Below, piece by piece: positions 2,895 through 24,938 of a stretch of DNA of 32,000 nucleotides. The notes under the pieces are model-generated. The model did no database searches, was not told where the DNA came from, and saw only the letters and a list, made by a program, of their open reading frames with translations. The position numbers and the translations under genes are program-made. This stretch comes from Candidatus Woesearchaeota archaeon (GTDB lineage: Archaea; Nanobdellota; Nanobdellia; Pacearchaeales; GW2011-AR1). The DNA is taken from positions 13,063 to 45,062 of the forward strand of contig CAZGIL010000003.1 of the NCBI GenBank assembly GCA_964526265.1. The letters run 5' to 3'. Each line of letters begins with the position of its first letter. Positions within the stretch are counted from its first letter, which is position 1.

Positions 2895-3059
2895 TTATGT
2901 TTTCGTATTTACCAATAGCGGATATTGATATTTTTATCATTTTATGCACCCTGGAATGAATTAGATAGAAAAAGTGGGTTTTTAAAGGTTTTTGAAGGAA
3001 CCCGTCAGTTTTTTTGGGAGGTAATAACTTAAAGAGTATCTTCAACTTATTGAAGAGTT

Positions 3060-3905
3060 TTATTCGTCAAATGGAACAATCTTTTGCAGAATCGTATCGT
3101 AGTTTGAATCCAAACAATAACAAATCACTTCACCCAATTTCTCGTCATATCGGTAATCATAAGTATAAACGTTTTCTAAACCTTGGCAAGAGATAAAGCA
3201 AAAAGAATCTACATAATCTACGAGTTCTTGTGTTTGTTGGTCTGTTAAATTCTGGGGGTAATCAGAATTTTCATAATCATAATACCCATATTGAGACAAA
3301 CCGACTATTGCTGTTAAGATCAAAAAAGAAGCAAATACCAAAGAGGTTACAGCAAGTGCTTTTTGTTTATATTTTGTTAAATGAATTATTGACATTACAA
3401 AAGTGAAGATTACTGAAACAATCCAAAATAACCAAAAGATAAAATAGAAACTTTCTTCTCCACTAAGAAAAATGCTGATTGCCCAACAGAAAACCATAGT
3501 CCAAAAGCCTGCCCTTAATCCATACCACACAAAACCTTTTTTTACCTTCTCTTTCGTTTCATATTTCGGGTTTTCTTTAGTTTTCCTAAAACTACTTATC
3601 TCTTGAATCCCCCAGACAATTTGAATTATTCCAAAAATTCCCCAAAATCCCGATATCTCCCCCAAATTAATTATATAGGCAGAGATATTTAAAACTCCAA
3701 CAGCGATTAATAAAATCCCAAAAGTTAAAAGCATTTTTCTTGAACGATAAAATAATGCAATTACTCCCACCGCAACCAACACAAATCCCCAAGTAAAATC
3801 TAAAAATTGTGAGAGGATAAAATGTACTGCCCCCAGGATAATTAAAGCAATTCCTATATTTCTTACTTTCTTATTCAAATCAATCTTTTCTTGTGGCTTT
3901 TTCAT
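3060..3905 (-). CDS. Polytopic membrane protein (about 7 TM) with a Cys-containing acidic/aromatic C-terminal tail; function unknown
   Basis: 281-aa ORF with repeated hydrophobic helices. The C-terminal ~70 aa are soluble and contain FCFISC and CYC. ATG start overlaps the stop of the upstream ORF by 4 nt. Last gene of the low-GC operon. Confidence 0.6.
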   Translation of the reverse strand: MKKPQEKIDLNKKVRNIGIALIILGAVHFILSQFLDFTWGFVLVAVGVIALFYRSRKMLLTFGILLIAVGVLNISAYIINLGEISGFWGIFGIIQIVWGIQEISSFRKTKENPKYETKEKVKKGFVWYGLRAGFWTMVFCWAISIFLSGEESFYFIFWLFWIVSVIFTFVMSIIHLTKYKQKALAVTSLVFASFLILTAIVGLSQYGYYDYENSDYPQNLTDQQTQELVDYVDSFCFISCQGLENVYTYDYRYDEKLGEVICYCLDSNYDTILQKIVPFDE

Positions 3906-4132
3906 TTTTTTAGGTAATCTAGTATATTTTTATATCTTATTATTTGGATGGTGTAAAGAAAAAATATGGCAATAATGATTATGCCTGTGGTTATGCCCAA
4001 TTTATTCTTGAAAGAGAGGTCACGGACTATGTAATAACCTATTGACATTGATAACGCCAGAGCAATAAAAGATAAAAGCCAAGTTCTTGTATTTTCATAC
4101 TTAATTTTCAGTAATTCGTATTTTTTATTCAT
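3902..4132 (-). CDS. Small two-TM membrane protein; function unknown
   Basis: 76-aa ORF with two hydrophobic helices (WLLSFIALALSMSIGYYIV and ITTGIIIIAIFFLYTIQII). 4-nt start/stop overlaps with both neighbours suggest translational coupling. Confidence 0.5.
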   Translation of the reverse strand: MNKKYELLKIKYENTRTWLLSFIALALSMSIGYYIVRDLSFKNKLGITTGIIIIAIFFLYTIQIIRYKNILDYLKK

Positions 4133-5220
4133 AACCCAACTTCCTTAAAATTTATAATGCTTACAGAGCAGGGAGCAGTGCTACATCCATCATTGTTATA
4201 AACCTTGAAAGATTTTTCTTCGCCTGCTTCAATCTCAAAAATACTACTCTCTGTTGAATCCTTACCAAACCAATTAGAATAGATGCGATAGGTTACATTC
4301 AAAGATACACTTTTTTGTTGATTGTTTTTTATTATTACGTCTGTTTTGGAGCCAGTAACAATAATTGGCTCAACTTTAGGTTGTTCAGGAATTAAATTTA
4401 TATTCGGGTTCTCTTTGGGATAATTTTTAATTGCATCTCTTTTATTCTCATTATTTAATGCAAAATATCCGATTAGTATAATTACCAAGACAATTATCCC
4501 GATAAAAAAATATTTTTTCCAACCCCTTTTCTTTTCTTTACTCGTCTTTATTGGTTTTTCTAAATTGTTTTTATGTCTTTCTTGAACTTCTTTTTTCTTT
4601 GTGTTATATCTTCTTAACATTTCTTCTTCAACTTTTTTCTTCTTCTTTTCCTCTTGTTCTTTGATAATATTCTTAAATTCTTCTTTATTGCCCACAATTT
4701 CATTAACCTCTTTTTTAGTTATTTTTCTTCCCGTTACCCGATAAAATGTTAAAACTTCCTTAATAAATTCTTCATCTTCATCCATTAATAATCCAATTGA
4801 GCCCTCCTCAAATTCTACTCCTGCTTTTTTTAATAAATATTTATAAACTTCTTCCTGACTTTCTAAACTTTCTAAATATTCTCTTTCTCTTTTGGCTTCT
4901 TTCTCAATTGTAAATTCATACCAAGCATCAGAACACGCTTCCTTCCAAGTCAAATCCCCCTTTCCTTTTTTATCTATAATCTGGTGCAAATCAATGTGTT
5001 CTTCTGTAGTTAATAAAGCCAAATTTCCTATAAGATTATTTTTTTTATCTCCATCAATGTGATGAATCTCATATTTACTAAATGGAAGCTTATACTTTTT
5101 TCTGTTTTTCAAATAAATTTTATGATATGCGACTTTTCTGTGCCAAGCATTTGAATGATTATTTTCTCTGATATATCCATATTCATCCTCATAAAATTCT
5201 TTATTATATTTTTTATTCAT
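4129..5220 (-). CDS. Membrane-anchored HNH endonuclease-domain protein (N-terminal HNH, Lys/Glu-rich coiled segment, one TM, beta-rich C-terminal ectodomain)
   Basis: YEIHHIDGDKKNNLIGNLALLTTEEHIDLH fits the HNH_3-type motif (HH..G....N...NL.L.T..EH). A long charged stretch (EEKKKKKVEEEM) is followed by KKRGWKK plus the TM YFFIGIIVLVIILIGYFAL. The ~105-aa C-terminal domain contains CSTAPC. Confidence 0.7.
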   Translation of the reverse strand: MNKKYNKEFYEDEYGYIRENNHSNAWHRKVAYHKIYLKNRKKYKLPFSKYEIHHIDGDKKNNLIGNLALLTTEEHIDLHQIIDKKGKGDLTWKEACSDAWYEFTIEKEAKREREYLESLESQEEVYKYLLKKAGVEFEEGSIGLLMDEDEEFIKEVLTFYRVTGRKITKKEVNEIVGNKEEFKNIIKEQEEKKKKKVEEEMLRRYNTKKKEVQERHKNNLEKPIKTSKEKKRGWKKYFFIGIIVLVIILIGYFALNNENKRDAIKNYPKENPNINLIPEQPKVEPIIVTGSKTDVIIKNNQQKSVSLNVTYRIYSNWFGKDSTESSIFEIEAGEEKSFKVYNNDGCSTAPCSVSIINFKEVGL

Positions 5221-5395
5221 CTTTCTTCTTTTCCTCTTTCATAATCTTGTGCAGTGCATAATTAAATAATCTGGTAGCAGAAATATGCTTTTTTTTAATC
5301 CATTCAAAATCTTGCCTGGTTACTCTTACAGATAAAACTTTTGTTTTCTTTTCTGTTGCCTTAACTTTATTTATATCAAAGTCTTCAAATTCCAT
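5213..5395 (-). CDS. Small putative ribbon-helix-helix (CopG-like) DNA-binding protein
   Basis: 60-aa ORF. KVLSVRVTRQDFEWIKKK then HISATRLFNYALHKIM resembles a beta-strand plus two-helix RHH layout. It overlaps the HNH gene start by 8 nt and is first in the operon. Confidence 0.45.
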   Translation of the reverse strand: MEFEDFDINKVKATEKKTKVLSVRVTRQDFEWIKKKHISATRLFNYALHKIMKEEKKKDE

Positions 5396-5396
5396 T

Positions 5397-5428
5397 TGTA
5401 ATACAAAAGATTACATTAGTATTTAAAT
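5397..5428 (-). promoter_or_regulatory. Promoter of the RHH-HNH operon (TATA-like TTTAAATA) with a small inverted repeat between TATA and start codon
   Basis: The minus strand reads AGATTTAAATAC at 5430-5419. The first T of TTTAAATA lies 32 nt upstream of the ATG at 5395, which is leaderless spacing. TGTAAT (5397-5402) and ATTACA (5410-5415) form a 6-bp inverted repeat in between. Confidence 0.4.
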
Positions 5429-5482
5429 CTTTCTGCCTTGAAATGTGAATTAACTCCAACCATTTATTGCTAAGAAATAATT

Positions 5483-6199
5483 TTAAGCCTCAAACCCCAA
5501 CTCTTTCCTTACCTTAACCCCGTCAATCGTGCTCTCTCTAATTATCTTCCCTTTCCTTAATGCCCCCTCCCGCACTTTCGCGAAGTCCTTCTCTTTCTTC
5601 AGCGCTTCCGGTATAACCATATCCTCAATTACAAAGGTATGTCTTATCTCGGCTTCCTTAAAGTCAGGTTTTTCGTAAACGAAACCCCGTGCGAGAGTTG
5701 CGTCCTTTGTTATGAGCTTGCAAAAGTCTATCTTTGGCCCCTCTTCACTTCCTTTCGGGGAGGGTTTTCCCGACTTTGGGGCTTTTGGTTTTATTTTGAG
5801 AGTTGTTTCCCCATTTTCAGCAGAAAAACTCAAGCCGAAAAATGCCTTTGGAAACTCGTTCAATAGATTAAGAATTTCCTTTCCGGACATCTCGCCGTCA
5901 AGAAGATACCTTTTAACCCCCTGAAATTGTTTTTTTTCTTTAAAATTAATTTTTCCGGTTAAATCTGCAGTTGAAACAATTGCACCCGTAACGTTTGTTT
6001 TGGAATCTCCAAGTTTCACAGCAACCTCTCTTACAAGTTCGTTCCCAAATTCGGGAGAGGTGAAGATAGTGTATTTTCCCCCGGAAAATTTTGCTCTTAT
6101 TCCTGCCCTCTCTCGGAACTCACCCCGAGAAAACTTTTGGAATTGCAAATGAACCAAATCATCTCTCGCACCTCGTGAAATCTTTTCTATAAAATTCAT
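5483..6199 (-). CDS. Hypothetical protein, family not recognised; markedly G+C-richer than its neighbours
   Basis: 238-aa ORF with an ATG start, uninterrupted, with a balanced charged/hydrophobic composition. No motif I can name. Hand count gives 49/100 G+C at 5521-5620. Confidence 0.6.
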   Translation of the reverse strand: MNFIEKISRGARDDLVHLQFQKFSRGEFRERAGIRAKFSGGKYTIFTSPEFGNELVREVAVKLGDSKTNVTGAIVSTADLTGKINFKEKKQFQGVKRYLLDGEMSGKEILNLLNEFPKAFFGLSFSAENGETTLKIKPKAPKSGKPSPKGSEEGPKIDFCKLITKDATLARGFVYEKPDFKEAEIRHTFVIEDMVIPEALKKEKDFAKVREGALRKGKIIRESTIDGVKVRKELGFEA

Positions 6200-14520: not shown

Positions 14521-14550
14521 TTATAAACTATGGTAATTTAAGTTACCATA
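14521..14550 (+). promoter_or_regulatory. Promoter and operator of the MNT-HEPN operon
   Basis: TTATAAA lies at 14521-14527, about 30 nt before the ATG at 14550. An 8-bp inverted repeat, TATGGTAA (14529-14536) and TTACCATA (14543-14550), fills the TATA-to-start interval and ends on the A of the start codon. Confidence 0.55.
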
Positions 14551-15170
14551 TGGTAGAAAATATTAACAATATCAAGTTAAGACTAATCAGCTTATTTAGA
14601 AGTAATTATTTTAATCAGTTTCACATAAGAGAAATGGCTAAACTTATAGGAAAGAGTCATGTTAGTTTACTCCCACACCTAAAGAGCTTTGAGAAAGATA
14701 AGATACTTATATCAAAGGATGTAGGAAAGAGCAGGGTTTATTCGCTTAACTTGGAAAACAATCAAGTAAGAGAGTTTTTGTCTTTGAGTGAGAAGAAAGA
14801 AACATTAGACTTACTAAACAAAGAGTTTTTAATAAAAAAACTACATACTGAGTTCCTTAACTTAAATTTAAATGGTTGTTTGATTTTATTTGGGAGTTAT
14901 GTTTCTTCAACACATAACAAGGAAAGTGATATTGATTTAATGTATATTGGGGAATTGAAAGAAAACGAAAAGAATAAGATAAAACAATTTGGCAAAACCT
15001 ACAACAAAGAAATACATCTAACTTCTATGAACTTAAAGCAATTCAAAGAGCAACTCTCTAAACAAGGAGCACTAATCAAAGAAATTGTAATGAACCACAT
15101 AATTTTATATAATCATGATATTTTTATCAATGAAGTATGGAGGCATTACTATGAACGAAAAGAAAGATAG
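14550..15170 (+). CDS. wHTH-fused minimal nucleotidyltransferase (MNT-type antitoxin-like)
   Basis: N-terminal winged-helix-like FHIREMAKLIGKSHVSLLPHLKSFEKDKILISKDVGKSRVYSLN. NTase signature LFGSYVSSTHNKESDIDLMYIG (GS...D.D). Confidence 0.8.
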   Translation: MVENINNIKLRLISLFRSNYFNQFHIREMAKLIGKSHVSLLPHLKSFEKDKILISKDVGKSRVYSLNLENNQVREFLSLSEKKETLDLLNKEFLIKKLHTEFLNLNLNGCLILFGSYVSSTHNKESDIDLMYIGELKENEKNKIKQFGKTYNKEIHLTSMNLKQFKEQLSKQGALIKEIVMNHIILYNHDIFINEVWRHYYERKER

Positions 15171-15663
15171 TCATTCATTTTGTTTTAAAAAGGCTGGCGG
15201 TTTAAAACTTGTTAATCTTAACGAAAGGCTTGTAGAAGTTTATAAGAAAAAGTCAAGGTCAGCACTAAACATGCTTGAGTCAGCTAAAGAAAAACAAGAG
15301 GATGAATGGATTTTAGATACTTCTTACTACGCAAAATATTTTATGGTTTATGCCTTGTTTATGAAAGTAGGAATAAAATCAGAAATACATGACTGCACTA
15401 TCTTTGCCTTAAATTCATTGTTTGTGGAAGAAGGAATAGTTGACAAAAATATTTATGAAGAACTCGAAAAGTCTAAGGATTTGAGAGTTGGAGCTCTTTA
15501 TTATGACAAAGACTTTGGTAGAGAAGAAATATTAAAGAGGGCTAAAACTGCTCCAGAATTCTGTTTAAAAGTAGAATCAATTTTGGACAAGATTACAAGA
15601 GAAGATATTGAGAAAGTAAGAACTAAATTTAATGTTTTAAAAACGGATTTATTAAAGCAATAA
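15151..15663 (+). CDS. HEPN-domain protein (toxin-like partner of the MNT)
   Basis: Start at ATG 15151, preceded by GGAGG, overlapping the MNT gene by 20 nt. All-helical. YYAKYFMVYALFMKVGIKSEIHDCTIFAL resembles archaeal HEPN partners of MNTs. Assignment rests on motif memory plus gene context. Confidence 0.65.
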   Translation: MNEKKDSHSFCFKKAGGLKLVNLNERLVEVYKKKSRSALNMLESAKEKQEDEWILDTSYYAKYFMVYALFMKVGIKSEIHDCTIFALNSLFVEEGIVDKNIYEELEKSKDLRVGALYYDKDFGREEILKRAKTAPEFCLKVESILDKITREDIEKVRTKFNVLKTDLLKQ

Positions 15664-16151
15664 TGAAAAAGATTAATCAAAAGGCTTATAGAAAAACTCT
15701 GAAGTGGATTGTTGAAGTTTTAAAAAGAAAGAAAATAAGATTTAACGTCTTAGGAGGATTAGCAGCATATGCCTACGGTTCAAAAAGAATGCTTGTTGAT
15801 ATCGATTTAGCTATAAAAAATAAAGATTTTTTAAAACTTGCTAAAGATGTTGAGGAATATCTTGTAGAAGAGCCACATTTTTCTAAATCAAAAAATTGGG
15901 AATGTTACTATATGGAAATTAAGTATGATGGAATTACTATTGAAATTGGAGGAGATCGTGGTTGTAAATTTCTTGATTCGAAAACTAAAAAATGGCAGAA
16001 ACTAGGAGATGGCTTATCAAAATCAACAATTAAGAAAGTTTTGGGTTTAAGTCTCCCAATCATTCCTAAAAAAGAGCTTATTGCATACAAAAAGAAATTA
16101 ATGAGAAAAGTAGATATTATTGATTTGAAAAATTTAGGTTATAGTAAATAA
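15663..16151 (+). CDS. Second nucleotidyltransferase-fold protein (Lnu/ANT-like GG...D.D motif)
   Basis: VLGGLAAYAYGSKRMLVDIDLAI fits the polymerase-beta-fold NTase signature. Its ATG overlaps the HEPN stop (TAATG). Confidence 0.6.
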   Translation: MKKINQKAYRKTLKWIVEVLKRKKIRFNVLGGLAAYAYGSKRMLVDIDLAIKNKDFLKLAKDVEEYLVEEPHFSKSKNWECYYMEIKYDGITIEIGGDRGCKFLDSKTKKWQKLGDGLSKSTIKKVLGLSLPIIPKKELIAYKKKLMRKVDIIDLKNLGYSK

Positions 16152-16171
16152 TTGAGGAAAACATCAGTATC

Positions 16172-16210
16172 TTAATCCTTAGGATTAAGTAATCGTGGGG
16201 GCATTTATTC
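16172..16210 (+). repeat. Island repeat copy 2 (permuted: hairpin first, then G5 box)
   Basis: TTAATCCTTAGGATTAAGTAATCGTGGGGGCATTTATTC, 21 nt after the stop of ORF 15663-16151. 25/31 identical to copy 1 over the box region. Confidence 0.8.
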
Positions 16211-16281
16211 TGCGAGAACTTGCCTAGCAAACCAAAAAGCTTATAAATTATAAAAATTATAATTATTATAGGAAATATAAA

Positions 16282-16488
16282 ATGGAAAACACGACAATTG
16301 CAATAACAAGGAGCATACAGGAGAAAATAAATGAGTTTGGAAATAAAGGGGAGACCTACTCGGAGATTATAGCTCGGCTAATAGATAGTGCAAAAAAGAG
16401 GCAGTTATACGATTTGTTAATGAACGAAGAAAATACAGTTTCTATAGAAGAGGCCATCACTAATTCTAAAAATAGATGGCAAAAGTAA
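16282..16488 (+). CDS. Putative antitoxin (archaeal VapB-like/RHH-like small protein)
   Basis: 68 aa. TIAITRSIQEKINEFGNKGETYSEIIARLI matches the archaeal putative-antitoxin pattern (TI.I...v...L......ES.S.vI..L). It overlaps the downstream toxin-like gene by 13 nt. Confidence 0.6.
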   Translation: MENTTIAITRSIQEKINEFGNKGETYSEIIARLIDSAKKRQLYDLLMNEENTVSIEEAITNSKNRWQK

Positions 16489-16817
16489 TATTTACTAAAA
16501 AACTTGAAGAAGAGATAAACAAAACATTCAAGAAAGAATCAACTAAGACATTTGAGTCTATGCGAGAACTGGAGAAGAATCCACATAAGGGCAAACCTCT
16601 GGGACAAGTTGGAGGAATAGTTATCAAGGAAATAAGGCGAGAGTCCTACAGATTCTATTTTATAACCGATGGATTCAAGTTAAAGATGCTTCAGAAAGAA
16701 GAATTGACTGATTTATTAATAAAATTTGTGCGCATGTCCGACAAAAAAGAACAGCAAAAAACAATTGACGAAATTAAAGACGTTTTAAGGAAGATTGGAG
16801 AAGAAGGTTTTAATTAA
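16476..16817 (+). CDS. RelE/ParE-like toxin with a C-terminal helical extension
   Basis: ELEKNPHKGKPLGQVGGIVIKEIRRESYRFYFI fits the RelE/ParE core (..P..G..L......r...yR..Y.i). 113 aa, longer than I recall for typical family members. Confidence 0.6.
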   Translation: MAKVIFTKKLEEEINKTFKKESTKTFESMRELEKNPHKGKPLGQVGGIVIKEIRRESYRFYFITDGFKLKMLQKEELTDLLIKFVRMSDKKEQQKTIDEIKDVLRKIGEEGFN

Positions 16818-24036: not shown

Positions 24037-24059
24037 TTCTTTTGGGGTACTTTGATAGC

Positions 24060-24938
24060 ATGAAAAGGTATACCATCTCCAGAAAACTGAAAAATTATAT
24101 TAAATCTGCTTCATACACAATTCGTGAGATTAATCGGATGGCAGGGTTCGATATAAGGAATATTCTTAATAAAAATATAAGCATTAATGAGGTCCATCTT
24201 AAAAAGTTGGAAGATATTTTTAAAATAAAGTTTCGATTAAAAGAAATTCATTTTCACCCCGAGACAAATTTTGGATTTCTGCCAACAGATGTAAAAAAGA
24301 GGTTTAACTGCTCCGCGCAGTTAGCAGAATTTGTAGGGATTATGCTGGGGGATGGAAATCTTGACAGAAATCGAGTTAAAATTTCTTTGGATAAACGGGG
24401 GACGAATTATATAAGATATGTAAAACACCTTTTTAAAGCCCTATTTGGCGTAGAATTAAAACAAGTTAATGTATTAAACACAAATCAAACACACCTCCAT
24501 TATTATAATAATTGTTTGGTAAATGATTTGCTTAAATATGGGCTTAAACGCGGGGATAAAATAAGGAACAAGATAAGAATACCCCAATGGATTAAATTTA
24601 ATTTAAATTACTCGAGGTCTTGTATTCGTGGGCTTATCGACACCGATGGTTGTATTTACTTTTGCAAACGGGAAAGAAAGATTTATATCAAATTCACTAA
24701 TTTTAATCCCTTTCTCCTCAAGGATTTTTCTATTTTAACCACGGCATTGGGCTATCATTTTGTTAAGGCAAATAAAAAGAACAAAGCTCTTTATAGAAAA
24801 GATGAAGTAGTAAGATTTATTAAAGAAATAAAACCACTTAAAAGTGAGGGGATATGGGCCAACCTGGTTAAGCTTCGAGGTTTGGGACTTCGCGATCCCG
24901 GTTCAAATCCGGGTATCCCCATCACCCCCAATAAATAA
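24060..24938 (+). CDS. LAGLIDADG-family homing-endonuclease-like protein with N-terminal HTH; 3' end overlaps tRNA-Pro
   Basis: Two LAGLIDADG motifs: LAEFVGIMLGDGNL and CIRGLIDTDGCIY. N-terminal helix-turn-helix-like YTIREINRMAGFDIRNI. No in-frame stop until 24936-24938. Confidence 0.85.
   Translation: MKRYTISRKLKNYIKSASYTIREINRMAGFDIRNILNKNISINEVHLKKLEDIFKIKFRLKEIHFHPETNFGFLPTDVKKRFNCSAQLAEFVGIMLGDGNLDRNRVKISLDKRGTNYIRYVKHLFKALFGVELKQVNVLNTNQTHLHYYNNCLVNDLLKYGLKRGDKIRNKIRIPQWIKFNLNYSRSCIRGLIDTDGCIYFCKRERKIYIKFTNFNPFLLKDFSILTTALGYHFVKANKKNKALYRKDEVVRFIKEIKPLKSEGIWANLVKLRGLGLRDPGSNPGIPITPNK
24848..24921 (+). tRNA. tRNA-Pro (anticodon UGG); no encoded CCA
   Basis: Hand fold. Acceptor GGGGATA/TATCCCC. 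Anticodon stem CGAGG/CTTCG with loop TTTGGGA (G37). T arm CCCGG-TTCAAAT-CCGGG. Discriminator A. GC-rich relative to its surroundings. Confidence 0.9.

Follow-up and report, generated by a model that had tools for sequence, protein, structure and literature searches.

The question raised by this locus is what four small overlapping genes, one of them for a putative nuclease, are doing beside the ribosomal protein genes of a Candidatus Woesearchaeota archaeon. The genes, designated g1 through g4, form a cassette on the minus strand of a 32,000-nt stretch of contig CAZGIL010000003.1; this whole stretch is referred to here as the window. A sequence-only reading had described g2 as a membrane-tethered HNH nuclease and had suggested that the block might be a defense, DNA-uptake or viral module. 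Our answer is that g2 is one of a rare and undescribed group of modular DPANN proteins, in which swappable nuclease heads are combined with a membrane anchor; the group is related in kind to membrane-anchored or effector-swapping conflict nucleases.

Domain organization and topology of g2

The g2 gene (4129-5220, minus strand) encodes a protein of 363 amino acids (aa). Its structure was modeled by AlphaFold2 (AF2) with 29 homologues, giving a mean predicted local distance difference test score (pLDDT) of 79.5. The first 90 residues (4951..5220) form a predicted cytoplasmic HNH_3 head, which was recognized by Pfam, PHROG, motif and AF2. The Pfam HNH_3 family (PF13392) matched aa 45-75 with E=2.9e-8 and 33.7 bits against a gathering score of 24.8, and five PHROG HNH endonuclease families matched the head at E<=1e-5 (approximately 2e-8). 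In the model the HNH head lay within residues 9-86, and the beta strands and helix at 50-86 covered the HNH_3 match. The residues of the catalytic core, HH-x-[DN]-G..N..NL..H...H (ββα-Me), were present in g2 and invariant in 18 HNH-headed relatives. With a score above the Pfam gathering value and its catalytic residues in place, the HNH_3 motif first seen in g2 by eye has held up, and their absence, which would have spoken against a nuclease, was not observed. The head is predicted to be an intact HNH_3 nuclease.

The head is followed by a helical spacer (aa 91-221; 4558..4950; pLDDT about 80), which, judging from the breakpoint described below, is swapped together with the head. This spacer had been described as one long Lys/Glu coiled segment. 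That description fits residues 179-221, which form a single long K/E-rich helix in the model, and does not fit residues 92-177, which form several short helices. A single transmembrane (TM) helix at aa 234-256 (4453..4521), preceded by KKRGWKK and oriented N-in/C-out, leads through a disordered stalk (residues 259-284 in the model) to an extracellular Ig-like domain at aa 285-363 (4132..4368; pLDDT 90-98). The model shows this ectodomain as a six-strand beta sandwich (aa ~285-360) with a GC-x4-C pair of cysteines (GCSTAPC). The single TM helix after KKRGWKK and the beta-rich outside domain with CSTAPC, both proposed earlier, were thus borne out by the AF2 model.

The topology was examined in 60 g2-family members, using the 15 residues that flank the TM helix on each side. 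Across the family, K+R residues averaged 5.55 before the helix as against 1.53 after it, and the N side had the higher number in 52 of the 60 members. The count of cysteines after the TM helix was even in all 60. Excalibur and Cys-rich inserts occurred in the family only after the TM helix; in one member an inserted Excalibur domain separates the TM helix from the C-terminal domain (C-domain). The K+R bias, the even Cys counts and the insert positions all support the cytoplasmic location that had been assigned to the nuclease by the positive-inside rule. Sequence and model together predict that g2 is a type-II single-pass membrane protein, with the nuclease inside and a disulfide-bearing Ig-like domain outside.

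Database searches gave little beyond the head. A PDB sequence search with g2 produced a noise match only. Foldseek comparison of the g2 model with the PDB returned generic sandwich domains of the Ig-like type, none of them at E<=1e-3, and comparison with BFVD gave three weak matches with low TM scores and some phage HNH proteins, which were uninformative. A scan of NCBIfam with all four proteins gave nothing meaningful. For the g2 ectodomain, g1 and g4 there was no Pfam, NCBIfam or PHROGs match; the ectodomain and g4 had no fold match in the PDB, and g1 had no PDB sequence match.

Exchange of heads on a constant scaffold

Similarity between g2 and its homologues lies mostly in the TM helix and in the C-terminal ~80 residues, where identity is 53-83% even between members with unrelated heads. 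A C-domain profile detected 68 clusters at E<=1e-3 among 1.84 billion representatives, and in all 68 matches the C-domain was C-terminal and followed one TM helix. A scan of the GTDB species representatives with a C-domain pattern produced no loci and a JGI scan produced 8; the family is seen mainly in metagenome contigs. Heads were classified in 63 members: 26 had HNH_3 and 20 had DUF559/MTES_1575 (Vsr-like) heads, one each had NERD and DnaJ, and the remainder were multi-TM, zinc-ribbon or unassigned. The DUF559 heads retained the motif VD...EVDG..H.

Near-identical cassettes were found that differ only by the head. The cassette at locus L019 (and at L026-L035) has a DUF559 head, and its DNA is 89% identical to the window over g1 and 79% identical over the g2 TM/C-domain plus g3. 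Locus L020 shares the g1 and TM/C-domain segments with the window and carries another HNH head. For L019 and L020, the ranges of DNA identity to the window were 86-89% for g1 and 73-79% for the TM/C-domain. The breakpoints fell at the g1 stop codon and at approximately window position 4535-4540, just before KKRGWKK and the TM helix. Comparison of these cassettes shows head swapping by recombination on a constant TM-plus-ectodomain scaffold, and the swapping is recent as judged from the alignments. Such exchange of effectors on a constant scaffold resembles what is found in defense and polymorphic-toxin systems.

Two related arrangements were observed. In P0029, a 256-aa protein from a metagenome, a g2-type HNH head is C-terminal, behind two N-terminal TM helices and a middle stretch that appears PD-(D/E)xK-like by eye, and the Ig-like domain is missing; this reverse arrangement indicates that HNH heads of this type acquired a membrane anchor on more than one occasion. 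Where the head is DUF559, a 160-aa HExxH protein (L026 4406-4888, also in L027-L035) is always divergent from g1. It has weak matches to a phage metallopeptidase family and to M48, and its layout with g1 recalls the protease plus small-regulator pairs of mobile elements.

The g1 leader and its promoter-operator region

The g1 gene (5213-5395, minus strand) encodes a basic protein of 60 aa that appears to be a conserved leader or regulator, possibly of the ribbon-helix-helix (RHH) type. Its homologues form 38 clusters with 64-95% identity and an invariant core, LSVR.T..DFEWIKK..IS.T.LFNYALHK. The Pfam matches were marginal, to RelB-like and NikA-like families at E values of 0.01-0.07, below the cut-offs. 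The pattern of a strand (LSVRVT), a helix, an I-S-x-T turn and a second helix is compatible with an RHH fold and is not proof of one. A PDB profile search gave no match, and hhalign comparison with a hand-typed Arc/Mnt/CopG alignment gave a probability of 0.1%; the diversity of the g1 alignment was very low (Neff 1.5), and these negative comparisons are therefore weak. An RHH identity for g1 is plausible.

The genes that follow g1 are of several kinds. It precedes HNH-headed genes, DUF559-headed genes and soluble PD-(D/E)xK-motif genes. Its pairing with g2 recurs in L001, L019/L026-L035 and L020. In L036 (75% identity) and L037/L038 (64%) the g1 homologue stands before a soluble protein of 235 aa instead of a membrane nuclease; this protein has a PD-(D/E)xK-like motif, PDFVV...EVKFR, and a Pfam PDDEXK_11 match below threshold (E=0.048). 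The g1 of the window has 95% identity to the g1 of a DUF559-headed cassette, compared with 88% to that of a cassette with the same HNH head. Because g1 identity does not track the type of nuclease downstream, g1 is more readily seen as a transcriptional regulator or leader than as a cognate antitoxin. For this reason the idea that g1 is a head-specific cognate antitoxin was rejected.

Upstream of g1 there is a TATA-like box, TTTAAATA (5420..5427, minus strand), identified by reading of the sequence and invariant in 7 loci. It lies ~29 nt before the g1 ATG, a distance that implies a leaderless or near-leaderless mRNA; the cassette mRNA is probably leaderless. Between the box and the ATG is an operator-like repeat (5397..5415, minus strand), with TGTAAT at 5415-5410 and ATTACA at 5402-5397. 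The repeat can be read as an inverted TGTAAT/ATTACA pair or as a direct TGTAWT repeat with two copies ~11 nt apart. A 6-nt inverted repeat alone carries no meaning in AT-rich DNA. However, the segment TTTAAATACTAATGTAwTCT..TTGTATTACAAATG was invariant or nearly so across 7 independent loci, and the DNA upstream of TTTAAATACTAATGTAwTCT was unconserved. This region was kept even in L036 and L037, in which the downstream gene differs. The TATA box and the small inverted repeat before the ATG that had been pointed out earlier were therefore both located, in a region that is conserved in the 7 loci. We infer from this conservation that the repeat may be the binding site of g1. As far as the alignments go, g1 and the promoter-operator are shown to be a conserved portable leader before interchangeable genes.

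Layout and composition of the cassette

The whole cassette (promoter, g1, g2, g3 and g4) occupies 3058..5434 on the minus strand, between a gene for a 238-aa protein (5483-6199) and rpl3 (1938-2894). Its ends were set by blastn homology to loci L001-L004, which covers exactly 5434-4139 and 3911-3058: the homology begins at the TATA box (5434), skips g3, and stops at the g4 stop codon (3058). After g1 and g2 come g3 (3902-4132; 76 aa), a variable slot, and g4 (3060-3905; 281 aa), both also on the minus strand. The start/stop overlaps of g1/g2, g2/g3 and g3/g4 are 8, 4 and 4 nt, so the coordinates (5395 to 3060) and the overlaps of 4-8 nt first given for the chain of four minus-strand open reading frames (ORFs) are correct. 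The reality of the genes is indicated by other contigs, which keep g1 (64-95%), g2 (79%) and g4 (76-84% amino-acid identity).

The G+C content of the cassette is 29.6%, compared with 34.5% for the window, and the cassette is the lowest-G+C 2.4-kb stretch of the window (other stretches, 34.8±1.8%; minimum, 30.2%). The contrast had been illustrated earlier with counts of 15/60 within the cassette and 49/100 in the neighboring gene; these counts are exact and the cassette is indeed extreme, but the two segments had been cherry-picked from the extremes. A scan for bacterial-type promoters and terminators, a method not applicable to archaea, remained at background, and Rfam detected two tRNAs only in the window, none of them within the block. 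The first 14 nt of g2 and g3, ATGAATAAAAAATA (MNKKY), are the same (5207-5220 and 4119-4132) and lie at overlapping gene junctions. The sharing could be chance in AT-rich DNA, or it could mark a recombination-prone junction.

Variability of g3 and separability of g4

The g3 protein has 2 TM helices. The g4 protein has 7 TM helices (AF2 pLDDT 82) and an extracellular tail with four cysteines. The earlier description of a 2-TM peptide and a protein of about 7 TM helices with a Cys-bearing tail was accurate. The g3 gene is part of the DNA that L019 shares with the window over the TM/C-domain, and this type of cassette recurs in L026-L034. In L001 the g3 slot holds a non-homologous TM protein of 60 aa (25% identity). 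In several lineages, though not in all, the gene after g2 encodes a small TM protein. The 43 homologues of g4 form a separate DPANN membrane-protein family, with a conserved 7-TM core and variable extracellular tails (Cys-rich, Excalibur and other). A Foldseek search of the PDB with the g4 model gave a best E of 0.6, and g4 has no Pfam match.

The four genes had been thought to include dedicated membrane partners for the nuclease. Such a partnership is not obligatory: g2 and g4 occur separately and g3 can be replaced. Relatives of g2 without g4 were found in at least 6 contexts (L005, L006, L010, L012, L019/L026, L023 and L025), and g4 was found without g2 in L014 and L016. In L016, g4 follows a 2-TM protein of 66 aa. 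The full four-gene set does recur elsewhere, but it was found only in the window and in its close relatives L001-L004, in which g3 is replaced. An obligate four-gene system was rejected, the families being separable.

A parallel four-gene cassette was observed in L014 (3837-5861). It consists of genes for an RHH-like protein of 55 aa, a soluble LemA-like coiled-coil protein of 250 aa, a 2-TM protein of 79 aa and a g4 homologue (79%). This parallel suggests that g4 and a small TM protein form a unit that can be joined to various pairs of upstream genes. The g4 tail (3060-3230 in the window) has the pattern C-x3-C-x(17-22)-C-x-C in 24 of the 43 family members, and the same pattern, sometimes twice, is found after the TM helix and before the Ig-like domain in g2-family proteins P0003, P0012, P0100, P0111 and P0114. 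A hidden Markov model of the g4 tails did not detect these Cys inserts of the g2 family (best E=0.16); the resemblance is therefore at the level of a motif, and homology is not claimed.

Insertion beside the L3 gene

The contig of the window recurs in several groundwater-type metagenome assemblies. Its L3 protein is at most 70% identical (best tblastn segment) to the L3 of metagenome-assembled genomes labeled Candidatus Pacearchaeota, Woesearchaeota and "Nanoarchaeota archaeon"; the g4 homologues carry the label Nanoarchaeota archaeon. The rest of the window consists of housekeeping genes: ribosomal protein operons, FtsZ, SepF, Spt5, prefoldin, aIF5A and AMP phosphorylase.

The L3 junction was compared in 26 Pacearchaeota and Woesearchaeota genomes, each searched around L3. 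The order AMP phosphorylase(-)/AI-2E permease(-)/238-aa gene(+)/L3/L4 was kept in 21 of the 26. The gap between the 238-aa gene and L3 was ~80-230 nt in about 13 genomes; in the others it was 0.4-1.7 kb and held unrelated ORFs. In the window it is 2589 nt and is occupied by the cassette. None of the 26 had g1-g4 at this junction. Comparison of the L3 flank in relatives, the check proposed for presence or absence of the block, thus found the block absent from 26/26 and the 238-aa gene directly before L3 in 21. As judged from this synteny, the block is an insertion, a discrete accessory cassette; we regard it as a small, horizontally shuffled element of a Pacearchaeota-like DPANN archaeon. In L001-L004 the cassette is 76-80% identical in DNA, lies in a different context and is followed by tyrosine recombinase and PAPS-reductase-like genes, the recombinase gene being present in L001 and L003. 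Direct or inverted repeats flanking the cassette, of the kind expected for att sites, were not found beyond chance.

Several other features of this neighborhood and of the window were observed. The 238-aa gene has no Pfam or NCBIfam match and has the highest G+C content in the window (42%); its product is a conserved DPANN protein, and its place between AI-2E permease and L3, with AMP phosphorylase before them, is strictly kept in about 22 Pacearchaeota and Woesearchaeota genomes. Its junction with L3 is a variable spot in relatives, about half of which are empty there. Junction ORFs were located at L042 791-1771, L048 5927-6901, L047 6495-6848, L052 6153-6584, L063 6443-6865 and L039 4912-5647. 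At some junctions the ORF encodes an opposite-strand protein of 324-326 aa whose resemblance to ATP-grasp proteins (D-Ala-D-Ala-ligase-like) is by eye only; at others there are small proteins of 90-143 aa with a common "...IWR..." motif. A second low-G+C (28-30%) accessory islet lies at 14550-16817. It contains genes for an MNT-type nucleotidyltransferase (14550-15170), a HEPN protein (15115-15663) and a DUF2204 nucleotidyltransferase (15663-16151), and ends with a small DUF7557 protein and a 113-aa partner (16282-16817), a pair whose DNA is 66% identical to L010, a locus rich in toxin-antitoxin (TA) genes. Finally, an ORF at 24042-24938 has a LAGLIDADG_3 homing-endonuclease domain (aa 191-263), and its frame runs through tRNA-Pro(UGG) at 24848-24921. 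The domain ends just before the tRNA, which was confirmed by ARAGORN and Rfam. This ORF may encode a homing endonuclease lying next to a tRNA gene, or what is left of such an enzyme.

Comparison with a known membrane-anchored nuclease

The closest functional comparison is with SNIPE of E. coli, a cytoplasmic nuclease anchored by a TM helix. SNIPE cuts phage DNA while this is being injected, and becomes toxic once its TM helix is removed; it consists of DUF4041 and a C-terminal GIY-YIG (Mug113-type) nuclease (bioRxiv 10.1101/2025.11.03.685801). Both proteins are single-protein effectors with a single-pass anchor, a cytoplasmic nuclease (predicted, for g2) and an elongated spacer. Each family has a conserved end and a diversified end, and for each the discrimination of self from non-self is proposed to rest on spatial confinement. 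The differences are also clear. g2 has no sequence or domain homology to SNIPE, with neither DUF4041 nor GIY-YIG found by Pfam and PADLOC. Its orientation is reversed, the nuclease being N-terminal and the TM helix near the C-terminal third. Outside the membrane, SNIPE has only a short periplasmic N-terminus, in contrast to the folded and conserved Ig-like domain of g2. The nuclease is the most conserved part of SNIPE but the swapped part of the g2 family. Finally, g2 is archaeal and its function is predicted only.

Possible functions of the cassette

Our tentative interpretation, to which we give somewhat less than an even chance, is that g2 acts on incoming DNA as a nuclease confined to the membrane, and is analogous to SNIPE but not homologous with it. 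Defense or abortive infection, DNA uptake and a selfish function look alike to computation, and defense is tentatively favored. The proposed mechanism would be as follows. Bound to the operator-like repeat of its promoter region, g1 would keep expression low. The rigid spacer would hold the nuclease at the inner face of the membrane, where confinement would keep it off the chromosome and position it to cut viral genomes or other mobile DNA crossing the membrane. The ectodomain would fix g2 at, or recruit it to, a site in the envelope, and in the window cassette it might act together with g3 and g4, whose tails would also be extracellular.

Head swapping is a hallmark of conflict systems. An accessory and mobile character also counts in favor; it is seen in the rarity of the family, the insertion at a junction that is free of the cassette in all 26 related genomes, the different context in L001-L004 and the lowest G+C content of the window. 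Family neighborhoods often contain TA, restriction-modification or defense-type genes, which lends weak support to an action on entering DNA. The neighbors in L010 include MNT, Fic, PemK and VapB; those in L023 include HicAB-like genes, as judged from their sequences; L029 has PDDEXK_1 and a type I methyltransferase, and L012 a SLFN-like helicase. ParE and MazE lie around the g1 locus L037, and PADLOC matches occurred among 103 neighbor proteins.

Several observations weigh against this interpretation. The neighborhood evidence is anecdotal, having no background control, and the window copy, L005 and L025 sit among housekeeping genes. The four proteins match no PADLOC-DB 2.0 model, giving only noise (E>=0.0017) in TM or low-complexity regions. 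One DnaJ head and several members with no recognizable nuclease indicate that the scaffold is not exclusively a carrier of nucleases. The ectodomain is too strongly conserved (the 53-83% given above) to resemble a virus-contacting sensor in an arms race, and mere anchoring of a nuclease needs no conserved outside domain. Next to nothing is known of the viruses that infect these archaea or of how they get in, and the interpretation is computational throughout, combining sequence, model and analogy.

The main rival reading is that the cassette is a selfish nuclease module, either a TA-like addiction module or a free-standing homing endonuclease, with g1 as antitoxin or controller and a tether that moderates toxicity. 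We consider this unlikely. Like the type II TA operons with RelB/ParD/CopG-type RHH proteins, the cassette has a small gene upstream of the nuclease gene and overlapping with it, a probable autoregulatory operator and, in many family members, TA modules as neighbors; the marginal RelB-like matches of g1, and the g1 homologues before the soluble 235-aa PD-(D/E)xK-like protein beside ParE/MazE pairs, point the same way. Unlike such operons, its putative RHH gene does not covary with the nuclease type and also precedes a different fold, and the "toxin" would be a membrane protein of 363 aa that includes an ectodomain; the HNH_3 and Vsr-like heads are not classical toxin folds. HNH_3 is typical of phage homing endonucleases, and g2 shares with the free-standing HNH_3 enzymes (PF13392; PHROG HNH) an intact ββα-Me core and presence/absence polymorphism at intergenic sites, which lie beside L3, gyrase and aminoacyl-tRNA synthetase genes. 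However, these enzymes are soluble and usually carry AP2, NUMOD or IENR domains, none of which was detectable in g2, whose head is instead continued by a TM helix and an ectodomain. As DPANN genomes consist mostly of housekeeping genes, chance alone would often place a cassette next to conserved ones, and neither flanking repeats nor a target duplication was found. A selfish module would explain g1 and the insertion pattern, but it leaves unexplained the TM helix and the conserved disulfide-bonded ectodomain of about 60 clusters.

A role in DNA uptake or nucleotide scavenging, in which cells unable to make nucleotides would import DNA from the host or the environment, the anchored nuclease would degrade it at entry, and the ectodomain and g4 would belong to an uptake or attachment apparatus, seems quite unlikely. 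It would suit a nuclease located on the inside of the membrane, the extracellular domains of both g2 and g4, the AMP phosphorylase (nucleotide salvage) gene 2 kb away, and the dependence of DPANN archaea on external nucleotides. However, the family is rare and patchy (the 68 clusters among 1.84e9), and g1-g4 were absent from the 26 related loci around L3, all with AMP phosphorylase synteny, which makes a core nutritional function unlikely. In addition, no homology to ComEC, pilus or channel components was detected, g4 matched neither Pfam nor the PDB, g2 and g4 are separable, and swapping of nuclease types is not expected for bulk degradation. The remaining possibility, that the block is ordinary cargo in a fragment of an integrated virus or large mobile element, is very improbable, and the suggestion of a viral fragment made in the sequence-only reading has not fared well. 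The low G+C content relative to the surroundings, the HNH_3 and PHROG HNH matches and the tyrosine recombinase gene after the cassette in L001 and L003 are in its favor, but the insert is only 2.4 kb, has no flanking repeats and is flanked by housekeeping synteny, with no provirus, integrase, capsid, terminase or other hallmark gene in the 32-kb window. Profiles of the C-domain, g1 and g4 gave no match in 2.9 million IMG/VR contigs, nor did g2 in GenBank phages and PLSDB plasmids.

Returning to the membrane-confined nuclease, it is pure speculation that the head might be released or activated by a signal from outside. The arrangement of cytoplasmic effector domain, one TM helix and extracellular domain is like that of the outside-in signaling anti-sigma factors of the RseA/RsgI type; on the other hand, no homology to them was detected and no protease or sigma partner is present. 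A more ambitious form of the proposal, which we regard as doubtful, is that g2 represents the first archaeal envelope-coupled innate immune nuclease. Its ectodomain would dock onto or sense an envelope or entry structure and its swappable head (HNH, Vsr-like or NERD), on a rigid spacer, would destroy the entering DNA. It would have arisen independently of SNIPE in ultra-small DPANN archaea, many of which lack CRISPR, and under its own g1 leader, which would also drive soluble nucleases.

The DPANN archaea are abundant and mostly uncultured, with small genomes and few recognized defense systems, and little is known of how they handle foreign or host DNA. The g2 family provides a testable candidate for the handling of incoming DNA at the envelope of these organisms. 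Should its role be selfish or nutritional, HNH and Vsr-like nucleases would still have been put to an unusual use here. If it is defensive, the strategy of cutting the invader at the membrane would have arisen independently in archaea and bacteria.

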